NCBI GenBank assembly: GCA_943913135.1
Contig: CALTVE010000002.1
Coordinates: forward strand, 283,981 to 347,980
Source: an uncultured Francisella sp.
GTDB taxonomy: Bacteria > Pseudomonadota > Gammaproteobacteria > Burkholderiales > Neisseriaceae
Length of the DNA stretch: 64,000 nucleotides
Direction of reading: 5' to 3'
In this document: piece after piece, positions 47,960 to 50,900 of the stretch
Numbering within the stretch: position 1 is the first letter of the stretch
Layout: every line of letters starts with the position of its first letter
Made by a program: the position numbers

Positions 47960-50900
47960 TCAACAATTTAGAGAACGCGTTTTCTAAATTCATGCGTACG
48001 GGTATCGATCTCAATGGTATCGCCGTTTTCAACAAACGCTGGCACCTGAATTTCCAAACCCCCAGTAATTTTAGCTGGTTTCATTACCTTGCCCGAGGTA
48101 TCGCCTTTGGCTGCCGGTTCAGTGTATTCTACTTGCCGAGTGATAATGGTGGGTAATTCTACGGAGATAGGATTTCCTTGGAAAAATGTGACTTCACACG
48201 GCTCTTCCATACCATCAACAATAAAAGGAGCAACATCAGTCATATTAGCGCCGTCGATTTCATACTGATTGTATTCTTCATCCATAAAAACATACATAGG
48301 ATCAGCAAAATAAGAATAAGTGCATTGTTTTTTCTCTAACACGATATCCTCTAATTTATCATCGGCGCGATACACTGCTTCGCTAATGTGACCATTCAAC
48401 AGGTTTTTTAATTTCATTTTAACCACGGCTGCGTTGCGACCGGATTTATTATATTCAGTCTTTTGGATCACCATGGCATCATTGCCGACTATAAACACGT
48501 TCCCTACGCGCAGTTCTTGAGCTGTTTTCATAAGTGTCCTTAAAATACTCCATTTATCAAAGGCTTTTTTAAGCTTGGTTTAGGCAGATTGTATCTTTTT
48601 TTCAATAAATTGTGTTAGTTTTTCAAAGGCAGAGGGCGGTTGTAACAGTGTTTTACTCCATTTCTGGCTTGCTTGCTGCCACTTTTGCTGCTCTTTTAAA
48701 AGGAGTGCCCAAGCTTTTTTTCGTTCAGCGTGGTTTAAAGATTTCCCTCCATTAAATTCTTCCGAAAGAGCTTGATAAGCGGTGAATAAGGAAAGGGGAT
48801 AAAAAGGTTTTAATAAATCTGAAAAAGCGGCCAGCTTATGAAGATGGAGCTTGTCTGCTTGTGGATAAATATTCCAGAAAAAGGGAATAGAAGCCAGCTG
48901 GGCGCGTACAAAACTGTCTTCTCCGCGGACCAGGGCAAAATCAGATAACCATAACAGTTTGTCAAAATCTCTTTGGGCAACAAAGGGTAGCTCTTGATAA
49001 TTGAAATGGTTTAAAAGTTGAGCATCGATGGCTGCTTTATTTTGATCGCCAGTTAGCCACAATTCTATATCTGAACTTAGATCTTTCCACAGGGCTAACC
49101 ATCTATTTAATTGAGAATTTTTATAAGAAAAGAGCAGGAATTTCTTTTTGTCGCTGTCTTTTATACCATATTGATGTAAGAAGCGATTTTTTTCTTCTTT
49201 ATTTTGTATAAAAAATTGTTTTTTAGCAGCATAGTCATTCTCGATCAACAAGCCGCCACTTCCTTCTTGAAAGCCTAAAAAATAAAAATATTTATCTGTA
49301 TCCGCTTTAAAAGAAGGTTTTAAATGAAAATCTAAAGTCCATTTTTCAGCGCTTAAGTATTCTAAATCAATATGTAAATAGGGTTTGGGTAAGGATCCCA
49401 GTAACAGATGGTGGGAAAAAGAGCCAAAGATTTCAAATACTACGTGCGGCGCTGGAAACTGAAAAGATATTTTTTCTAAAGGGGAAGAATCATAAGACCA
49501 AAATCGACAAATTACGCCCTCTTCCGTCACGGGATTATCTTTCAAACCAGGTTCTAGCTTTTGCATTTTTTCCCAGTTATCGCACCACAAAGTTATTTGC
49601 CAACCTTTATTGTGGGCAAGGCCACGAGCCAGTCGATAAGCAACCCCAGCATCGCCAAAATTATCAATGATGGTAGCAAAAATCCAAACTGATATTTTGC
49701 TATTATCTATTTTATTCACCTAAGTTATTCACAGGATTAACAAAAAAAAAAAAATCAAGAAAAGAAAGTTTTTTATACCACATTAATGGAGTAACCATTT
49801 GTTTTATATTATGAAAACAACAGTAATGGGGCCCAAAAATGATTCTATAAATGGCTTTATTTAAGTAAATAATTCAAGTTATGCCGAAAAGATAAAAGTT
49901 ATCCACAATTTTATCCACAGAAGCTGCTTATAGCGGGTGTTTCAAGCGTTGATGCCAGTGCCACCAGATAGAAATACAACCGATCAACCCGATCATGCCA
50001 AACAGAAGGGCATAAAGCCAACAGATAATCAAATAAATGAGGGTGAGCATAAAATGGATAACCCGAGGGATATAGATTTCATGACCACCGATAAAATAAT
50101 CAAGTAGAGTGTCTAGGCCTATTTTTGAAAAAGGGAACAACAAAGTGTTTAAGATTGCCAAAAATAAAATAAAATAGAATAGTGGCAGGTTTAATTCCTT
50201 GAAGAATATAAGGGAATTACGTACTAAATAAAGAAACAGTAAGCAAAATATAACCGAGATAAGATAGCGGAGAAGGAAATTCTTAACACTGACTTGGCGC
50301 ACCGAGCCGGAAAAAAAGCGATACACACTCACCTTAAGATTTCCTTATCTATCTAAACGTTATTACCAATTTATTAAGGTATGGAGACAAGATTTTGTCT
50401 CACAAGACGACGGGAATAATAGTAAGCTAAAAGTTGCAACAAAGCAACTTTTCAAAAGAGGGAATCGTTTTAGGTGCTAAAAAAGGGCTATGGTAAAATA
50501 ATCCAATGCCCTAAAAATTGCTTATTCAGGAAATAATTTATGTCGCAGACCGAAGTGGCCAACGAGATTTTACCTGTTAACGTCACCCAAGAAATGGAAC
50601 AGTCTTATTTAGACTACGCGATGAGTGTGATTGTTTCGCGCGCGCTTCCCGATGCACGTGATGGTTTAAAACCGGTACAACGACGCATTTTGTATTCTAT
50701 GCACGAAGGGGGGAATAATTGGAACCGACCATTTAAAAAATCGGCGCGGGTTGTCGGTGATGTGATTGGTAAATATCATCCGCATGGTGATTCTTCGATT
50801 TATGGGGCGATGGTACGTCTTGTACAAGATTTTAGTATGCGCTATCCATTGATAGAAGGCCAAGGAAATTTTGGATCTATAGATGCAGATAACCCTGCGG

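Follow-up and report, generated by a model that had tools for sequence, protein, structure and literature searches.

The 64,000-nucleotide stretch analyzed here (the window; contig CALTVE010000002.1 of assembly GCA_943913135.1, positions 283,981 to 347,980, deposited as an uncultured Francisella sp.) carries a cluster of DnaA boxes upstream of earP, the gene for the EF-P arginine rhamnosyltransferase. Together with a predicted binding site for IHF the boxes form a module of about 200 bp (49725-49919). Read along the earP strand (the minus strand), the module opens with a tandem pair of perfect consensus boxes, the outer box II (49911-49919, TGTGGATAA) and the co-oriented inner box III (49899-49907), separated by 3 bp. 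An IHF-type site with one mismatch to WATCAANNNNTTR follows after 94 bp (49792-49804, AAACAAATGGTTA), and a further 58 bp leads to box IV (49725-49733, TGTGAATAA), which carries one mismatch and ends 5 nt ahead of the GTG of the earP open reading frame (ORF). Boxes II, III and IV share one orientation, each matching TGTGxATAA on the earP strand. An earlier note on this DNA had pointed to the two exact boxes, which are present as TTATCCACA on the plus strand with the 3-bp spacer ATT, and to a variant box, TTATTCACA, which exists but lies one position further on (49725-49733) than the 49724-49732 reported.

At 49925-49933 (minus strand), 5 bp from box II and at the place where many related elements carry an inverted box I, the window reads CTATAAGCA, which matches the consensus at 5 of 9 positions and overlaps the stop codon of the adjacent 134-aa ORF. 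We judge box I to be degenerate or absent in the window; by analogy with the E. coli locus DARS2, whose box I matches at only 6 of 9 positions, the position may be a very weak site. An A13 homopolymer (49742-49754, plus strand), part of the presumed earP leader, falls within the arm that joins the IHF-type site to box IV. This run is polymorphic, being A13 in the window and in one within-species locus (L005) and an interrupted 14-nt version in two others (L006, L007), and the 1-nt difference lengthens that arm from 58 to 59 bp. The within-species loci are more than 99% identical and hence uninformative.

The module fills a 208-bp gap (49720-49927) that corresponds to the AT-rich interval of roughly 200 bp with an A13 run described in the earlier note (GC about 0.30 over the 291-bp stretch 49690-49980). 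That note placed the boxes between earP-efp and gyrA, which holds on the earP side; on the other side, a gene for a 134-aa multi-pass membrane protein (49928-50332, minus strand) intervenes before gyrA. The minus-strand genes are sodB, ftsB, eno, efp (47968-48531), earP (48580-49719) and the 134-aa ORF, and gyrA (50540-53137) and alr lie on the plus strand, with earP directly downstream of the module and followed by efp, eno and ftsB. The gap, which runs from the end of the 134-aa ORF to the start of earP, is therefore not a divergent promoter region. What had been called a divergent small ORF is co-directional with earP and divergent only from gyrA, and the suggestion that DnaA controls it was a misreading, for the ORF runs toward the pair and its stop codon lies 8 bp from box II, so that its transcription runs into the module. 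A terminator scan after the 134-aa ORF predicted none. The ORF is a real gene; its protein retains 35% identity and the invariant motifs LNTLLFPF and CWxYA in distant relatives, and it has no Pfam or NCBIfam family matches. In several lineages the gene likewise lies between gyrA and earP (L011 7300-7698; L012 708-1109).

The start of earP itself is uncertain, because the GTG used by the sister species aligns with an ATA codon in the window (49708-49710) that is preceded, 8 nt ahead, by a Shine-Dalgarno-like AGGTGA, while the ORF begins at the GTG at 49719. The earP protein cluster contains 379-aa as well as 376-aa members.

Perfect DnaA boxes are strongly over-represented in the window, with 4 observed against 0.35 expected (the earlier estimate had been about 0.5), a count reached in none of 100 shuffles. 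Sites with at most one mismatch to the consensus number 27 against 14.1 expected, whereas the relaxed pattern TTWTNCACA occurs 8 times across the window against 7.1 expected and is not enriched. What stands out, therefore, is the perfect copies and how they are arranged. The remaining two perfect boxes fall inside genes (48860-48868, minus strand, in earP; 56104-56112, minus strand, in an NlpC/P60 gene); the sister species has no perfect box at either place, and both boxes are thus probably not functional. A 3-bp-spaced tandem pair with at most three total mismatches occurs only at this element in the 284 kb formed by the window and related loci. The region upstream of mnmG contains no TTWTNCACA site, as the earlier note had stated; this 880-bp gap is explained by the three tRNA genes that fill it (window 2899-3610: Leu-CAA and Leu-TAG on the minus strand, and Thr-TGT).

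The arrangement is conserved upstream of earP over long evolutionary distances. We compared the window with the earP loci of a sister species (L008), a complete Neisseriaceae metagenome-assembled genome (MAG; L011, CP046107.1), a further lineage (L012), Snodgrassella (L014), Eikenella (L015), two Neisseria species, Kingella, Conchiformibius and three Burkholderiaceae; a search of GTDB representative genome contigs with EarP gave four distant loci and did not recover the source species. The same layout precedes earP in six lineages, namely the window and five others of Neisseriales-like affinity (L008, L011, L012, Snodgrassella and Eikenella), with EarP identity to the window of 80% in the sister species, 42% in L011 and 44% in L012, and of 36-44% in the most distant carriers. 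On the earP strand the shared layout consists of a TGTGxAxAA-NNN-TGTGxxxAA pair followed 165-173 bp later by a single TGTGxATAA. All six lineages have an IHF-type site in one orientation and at a matching place, with 86-95 bp between it and the pair and 58-72 bp between it and the single box. The CAA and TT columns of this central motif are invariant in the alignment (A2) and together form WATCAANNNNTTR; the site is perfect in Snodgrassella (AATCAATATCTTG) and Eikenella (TATCAATATGTTA) and has one mismatch in the window, L008, L011 and L012. Across the gap the window and the sister species are 71% identical; the pair and box IV each fall in a long block of 100% identity, and the IHF-type site in a shorter one. 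Eikenella keeps the module although both neighbors differ (prmC upstream, dsbC downstream), and there the core also includes a box I (TTACCCACA). In the three Burkholderiaceae the module is absent upstream of earP.

A link of the module to gyrA was considered and rejected, since Eikenella has prmC upstream and most members of the wider family have priA or hemE; in the Neisseriales the module does adjoin gyrA, and for E. coli datA and DARS2 the binding of IHF is reported to depend on negative supercoiling (PMC5742627, PMC11724364), a pairing that may be coincidence. In L012 (1-10572) the block of gyrA, small ORF and earP-efp-eno-ftsB directly adjoins mnmG-rsmG-parA-parB, whereas in the window mnmG-rsmG-parAB lies 35-46 kb from the earP block and on the opposite strand, so that an inversion or rearrangement separates the two lineages.

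Beyond earP, the module belongs to a large family in metagenome contigs. A deliberately loose pattern (TGTGNAWAANNNTGTGNNWAA, N82-99, WWWCAANNNNTTR, N54-76, TGTGNNWAA) returned at least 120 loci comprising 116 unique elements, and in all of the best 60 of these at least 120 matches the three boxes together show 0-2 mismatches to the consensus. Position 5 of box II, left free by the pattern, is G in 108 of the 116 elements, and the IHF core has AT at positions 2-3 in 71 of 116, where about 25% would be expected from the W positions of the pattern. The long arm measures 82-87 bp in nearly all matches, with a mode of 84, and the short arm is bimodal (58-62 and 66-72 bp, or about 59 or 69). Because the free positions follow the DnaA and IHF consensus and the arm lengths are narrow, the matches are not noise; their locus GC ranges from 0.27 to 0.71. 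The arm lengths fall into classes about 10 bp apart (84 versus 94, 59 versus 69), the 94-bp long arm of the window standing one helical turn above the family mode, which indicates that helical phase is preserved as expected for contacts across a protein-induced bend. As judged from these matches, the module occurs widely in Beta- and Gammaproteobacteria, from Neisseriales to Methylococcaceae.

A feature that formed no part of the query further unites the family. An inverted box I with at most two mismatches stands exactly 5 bp before the pair in 83 of the 116 elements (about 72%) and essentially never at the other spacings among the 0 to 11 bp tested. The distribution of box I mismatches is bimodal, so that about a quarter of the members (some 25 of 116, or 22-28%) truly lack box I, as the window does. 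The genes beside the module vary widely. In 35 loci priA is divergent from the core (its identity confirmed by name, the nearest relatives being from Methylobacter), with the core about 60-110 bp from the priA start; hemE is nearby in 27 metagenome loci, atp genes in several, and mtnA, pyrG or gltA in others. A strict link to earP was rejected on the same counts, as earP is nearby in only 3 of 120 metagenome loci. The occurrence of the module beside such different genes (priA, hemE, mtnA, pyrG, gltA, earP) argues for an autonomous function.

The I-5-II-3-III geometry of the family core is that of the DARS loci (DnaA-reactivating sequences) of E. coli MG1655, which release ADP from ADP-DnaA, DARS2 being activated by IHF together with Fis. 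In these cores DARS1 reads TTATCCACT-5-TGTGGATAA-3-TGTGTATTA and DARS2 reads TTATCCCAG-5-TGTGGATAA-3-GGTGTAAGA. Head-to-head boxes I and II with a 5-bp space are the defining and essential DARS feature (PMC6868365, PMC10380432, PMC11724364), and the DARS2 core is reported to be conserved among gammaproteobacteria related to E. coli (PMC4245941). The window shares with DARS a full-consensus box II in tandem with box III (TGTGGATAA-AAT-TGTGGATAA, 3-bp spacer). A further likeness to the family is that DARS2 depends on IHF (PMC4245941), though its published IHF and Fis sites lie on the box I side while the IHF-type site of the window lies on the box III side. IHF-like motifs can also be found beyond box III in DARS1 (86 bp away; L140 929-941, 2 mismatches) and DARS2 (84 bp away; L141 3571-3583, 1 mismatch), with the orientation and distance typical of the new family and on the side opposite to the published DARS2 IHF site.

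The arms of the module, in turn, resemble those of E. coli datA, a locus that inactivates DnaA by IHF-dependent stimulation of DnaA-ATP hydrolysis (DDAH) and whose loss leads to untimely initiation. In MG1655 box 3 (TGTGAATAA) is followed after 84 bp by the only perfect IHF site (TATCAATAGGTTA) and after a further 56 bp by box 2 (TGTGGATAA). Both are non-origin intergenic modules of about 190-200 bp with three co-oriented boxes, an IHF or IHF-type site between them and the same relative orientation of boxes and IHF core, the site in the window being a prediction; the datA arms of 84 and 56 bp compare with 94 and 58 bp in the window and with family modes of 84 and of 59 or 69. Three DnaA boxes of the same directionality are a criterion for datA (PMC5742627), and the module has three such boxes as well as a single IHF-type site between boxes, as predicted from its sequence. 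In datA the essential boxes are co-directional and their intervals to the IHF site functionally optimized (PMC5742627, PMC4585315), spacing and orientation both being important for function (PMC5742627, PMC10380432, PMC10950094). The gene neighboring datA is transcribed into it (PMC5742627, PMC10950094), and the module of the window likewise faces an incoming gene, the 134-aa ORF. Outside these motifs datA and the module have no sequence homology. By its motifs and spacings, then, the family combines a DARS-type core with datA-type IHF arms.

Other DnaA-box loci are less similar. P. aeruginosa oriCII, a secondary cluster of DnaA boxes that is conserved and non-essential and lies close to the origin-proximal genes, binds DnaA, affects transcription of the adjacent operon and shows autonomously replicating sequence (ARS) activity on plasmids (PMC13438810). 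It differs in context and geometry, its boxes (five or more, in mixed orientations) being located both within gidA and upstream of it, and an IHF site is not described in that report. In the left half of E. coli oriC (R1, IHF site, R5M and onward) co-oriented boxes flank an IHF site and bending joins the DnaA complexes (PMC10380432); there the distances are much shorter and an unwinding element and a second, opposite box array are adjacent, none of which applies to the module of the window. The clusters of B. subtilis and Streptomyces are also non-origin boxes that repress untimely initiation (cited in PMC5742627), but they contain many boxes, are said to titrate, and have neither an IHF site nor a fixed four-part geometry.

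The earlier note had raised the possibility of a second replication-related element and had proposed a GC-skew analysis of the full genome. GC skew over the window and 10 kb of flanking sequence shows no switch at the element, and 26 related loci show no systematic one. GC skew is positive across the whole window, the plus-strand skew to the left of the element being +0.132 for plus-strand genes and +0.047 for minus-strand genes and that to the right +0.139 and +0.045. In a weighted regression the replication-associated term is +0.091, with a side effect of 0.002 after correction for gene strand, and the sign does not change for 10 kb beyond the left end of the window. The constancy of sign places the origin more than 60 kb away, to the left; the origin-proximal gene set mnmG-rsmG-parAB-atp lies 35-46 kb from the element. 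Flanks of 3 kb or more on either side were available for the 26 family loci; the skew has the same sign on both sides in most of these, and a negative-to-positive change occurs in only 2. Box orientation agrees with the skew. The unwinding elements of E. coli oriC and of the B. subtilis origin are found 3' of TTATCCACA. On that side of the module (5' of TGTGGATAA, as at E. coli R1) the 134-aa ORF comes to its end, in coding DNA of normal GC that offers no AT-rich unwinding region, and in family members the same side holds box I and the start of priA. An oriC at this position is thus rejected by the skew regression, the 10-kb flank, the related loci and the orientation of the boxes relative to the AT-rich stretch, and the element is not a replication origin.

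A dormant or conditional second origin, that is, an oriCII-like autonomously replicating sequence, could draw on the content of the site (four DnaA boxes and an IHF site in 200 bp of AT-rich DNA), on the L012 locus, which sits directly beside mnmG-rsmG-parAB, and on the Pseudomonas precedent of a non-essential oriCII that replicates on plasmids (PMC13438810). The same skew and unwinding-side results count against it, and we regard a dormant origin as very improbable. Less credible still, to the point of being negligible, is the idea that DnaA-like words have gathered here by chance in an AT-rich intergenic stretch. In its favor are the base composition of the interval and the ordinary window-wide frequency of relaxed sites. 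Perfect boxes, however, are enriched in the window, and the arrangement persists at about 40% EarP identity and in 116 metagenome elements with consensus bases at unconstrained positions, so that the conservation data already refute this explanation.

The main rival, which might equally be a second role of the same DNA, is control of the earP-efp promoter. In such a device DnaA bound immediately upstream of the -35 element would, with IHF and the downstream box, activate or repress earP-efp-eno-ftsB, stop read-through from the 134-aa ORF and couple EF-P maturation and translation to replication. A consensus scan predicts a candidate sigma-70 promoter of earP-efp (TTTACT-16 bp-TAGAAT, 49842-49869, minus strand) that begins 29 bp downstream of box III, within the proposed DnaA/IHF loop; the sister species retains both hexamers (TTTACT, TACAAT) around a diverged spacer. 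Box IV, moreover, lies in the 5' leader. In the Neisseriales the module stays beside earP even where both neighbors have changed, as in Eikenella, and in the 35 priA loci the distance of the core from the start of priA is one at which the promoter must lie. There are also precedents, as the DnaA-box cluster of P. aeruginosa oriCII activates gidAB-parAB (PMC13438810), and DnaA near the asnC terminator acts as a transcription roadblock, a role also proposed for datA box 2 (PMC10950094). Set against these points is the retention of the same internal geometry beside unrelated genes, which weakens the earlier suggestion of DnaA-dependent control of earP-efp, even though such control may coexist with another function. 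In Snodgrassella and Eikenella a TTGACA lies downstream of box IV, whereas in the window any such promoter must lie upstream of it; earP functions without the module in Neisseria, Kingella and Conchiformibius; and no promoter-like consensus is conserved across the family. Promoter control as the primary function therefore seems to us a serious though less likely alternative.

We favor, with modest confidence, the reading that the element is a DnaA/IHF module of about 200 bp belonging to a widespread proteobacterial family, a non-origin locus that would regulate DnaA. This reading accommodates the architecture, conservation, distribution and non-origin status of the element, all of which are shown here. 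It also develops the datA-like or DARS-like option of the earlier note, for which the anatomy (co-oriented boxes, IHF-type site, arms) and the DARS geometry of the family speak, the support coming entirely from architecture and conservation.

Several observations weigh against it. The IHF-type site of the window departs from the consensus by its one mismatch, AAACAA for WATCAA. The window is without box I, which in E. coli is essential for ADP release at DARS. In datA the low-affinity partner box 7 stands beside box 2 on the short arm, whereas the pair of the window is on the long arm, and datA box 4 is inverted, 3 bp from box 3. The datA locus sits near oriC and is duplicated soon after initiation, and how the element compares in this respect depends on an origin that lies somewhere beyond 60 kb. 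Two Neisseria species, Kingella and Conchiformibius have earP without the module upstream, the metagenome matches were chosen by a pattern that itself fixes part of the geometry, and a site directly upstream of earP, or of priA elsewhere, also fits plain promoter control.

On the favored reading, a DnaA-regulating module, we infer DnaA and IHF binding, looping and an effect on DnaA or transcription from the sequence, and the mechanism may be outlined as follows. DnaA would assemble head-to-tail on the two consensus boxes of the pair, and IHF would bend the DNA at the central site so as to join DnaA bound at box IV to DnaA bound at the pair. The arm length classes of about 10 bp argue for a phase-sensitive contact between these two DnaA complexes. 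The looped oligomer would then change the state or availability of DnaA, through titration or DnaA-ATP hydrolysis. Because the boxes share one orientation and no inverted box I accompanies them, a datA-type outcome is likelier than DARS-type ADP release in the window copy, which by its boxes is a box-I-less subtype in a datA-like configuration; family members with box I may perform DARS-type ADP release. As a side effect the complex would probably block read-through from the 134-aa ORF and modulate the earP-efp promoter within the loop, since the presence of a promoter-like site in the module and the lack of a predicted terminator after the ORF suggest that it would probably gate transcription into earP-efp. 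A broader extension, which we hold only tentatively and consider doubtful, is that the family represents an ancestral DnaA-cycle control locus of Beta- and Gammaproteobacteria from which datA, DARS1 and DARS2 derive, with the presence of box I setting reactivation against inactivation or titration.

The organism itself adds some context. Neither ihfA nor ihfB is present within the window, and we infer the presence of IHF in the organism from relatives (L. hongkongensis, PMC3135505). The proteins of the window are found in hundreds of metagenome assemblies, human skin samples included. The GyrA sequence matches PZO93571.1 exactly, an entry filed under a Haemophilus parainfluenzae MAG, whereas among named organisms the closest EarP proteins come from Neisseriaceae (about 36-42% identity). 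The organism thus looks like a deep-branching lineage, mislabeled in that deposit and common in human-skin metagenomes. Elsewhere in the window (233-1901) yraN, a SIS-domain protein and a BON-domain lipoprotein (dolP-like) follow the E. coli order yraN-diaA-dolP. Scored as a phosphoheptose isomerase, the SIS protein exceeds the cutoff, and scored as DiaA it falls short; it may be a DiaA counterpart assisting DnaA assembly.

The datA and DARS loci are central to replication timing in E. coli and, in the literature examined, have been described only in E. coli and close relatives (PMC4245941, PMC4585315). Our literature search found no description of the module, including in work on DnaA boxes at priA or hemE or in Neisseria, nor of datA or DARS counterparts in Neisseriales or Methylococcaceae, which is not proof of novelty. 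If confirmed, the family would assign an old age and a wide distribution to DNA-templated control of the DnaA nucleotide cycle, and it would provide a genome-searchable signature, [TTATCCACA]-5-TGTGGATAA-3-TGTGNATAA-(82-96)-WATCAANNNNTTR-(56-72)-TGTGNATAA. Its natural variants, with or without box I and with arms differing by one helical turn, would allow inactivation and reactivation to be studied from the same scaffold. For this uncultured, human-skin-associated relative of the Neisseriaceae, the module would mark a site where replication is probably controlled and where the promoter of the EF-P maturation operon also lies.

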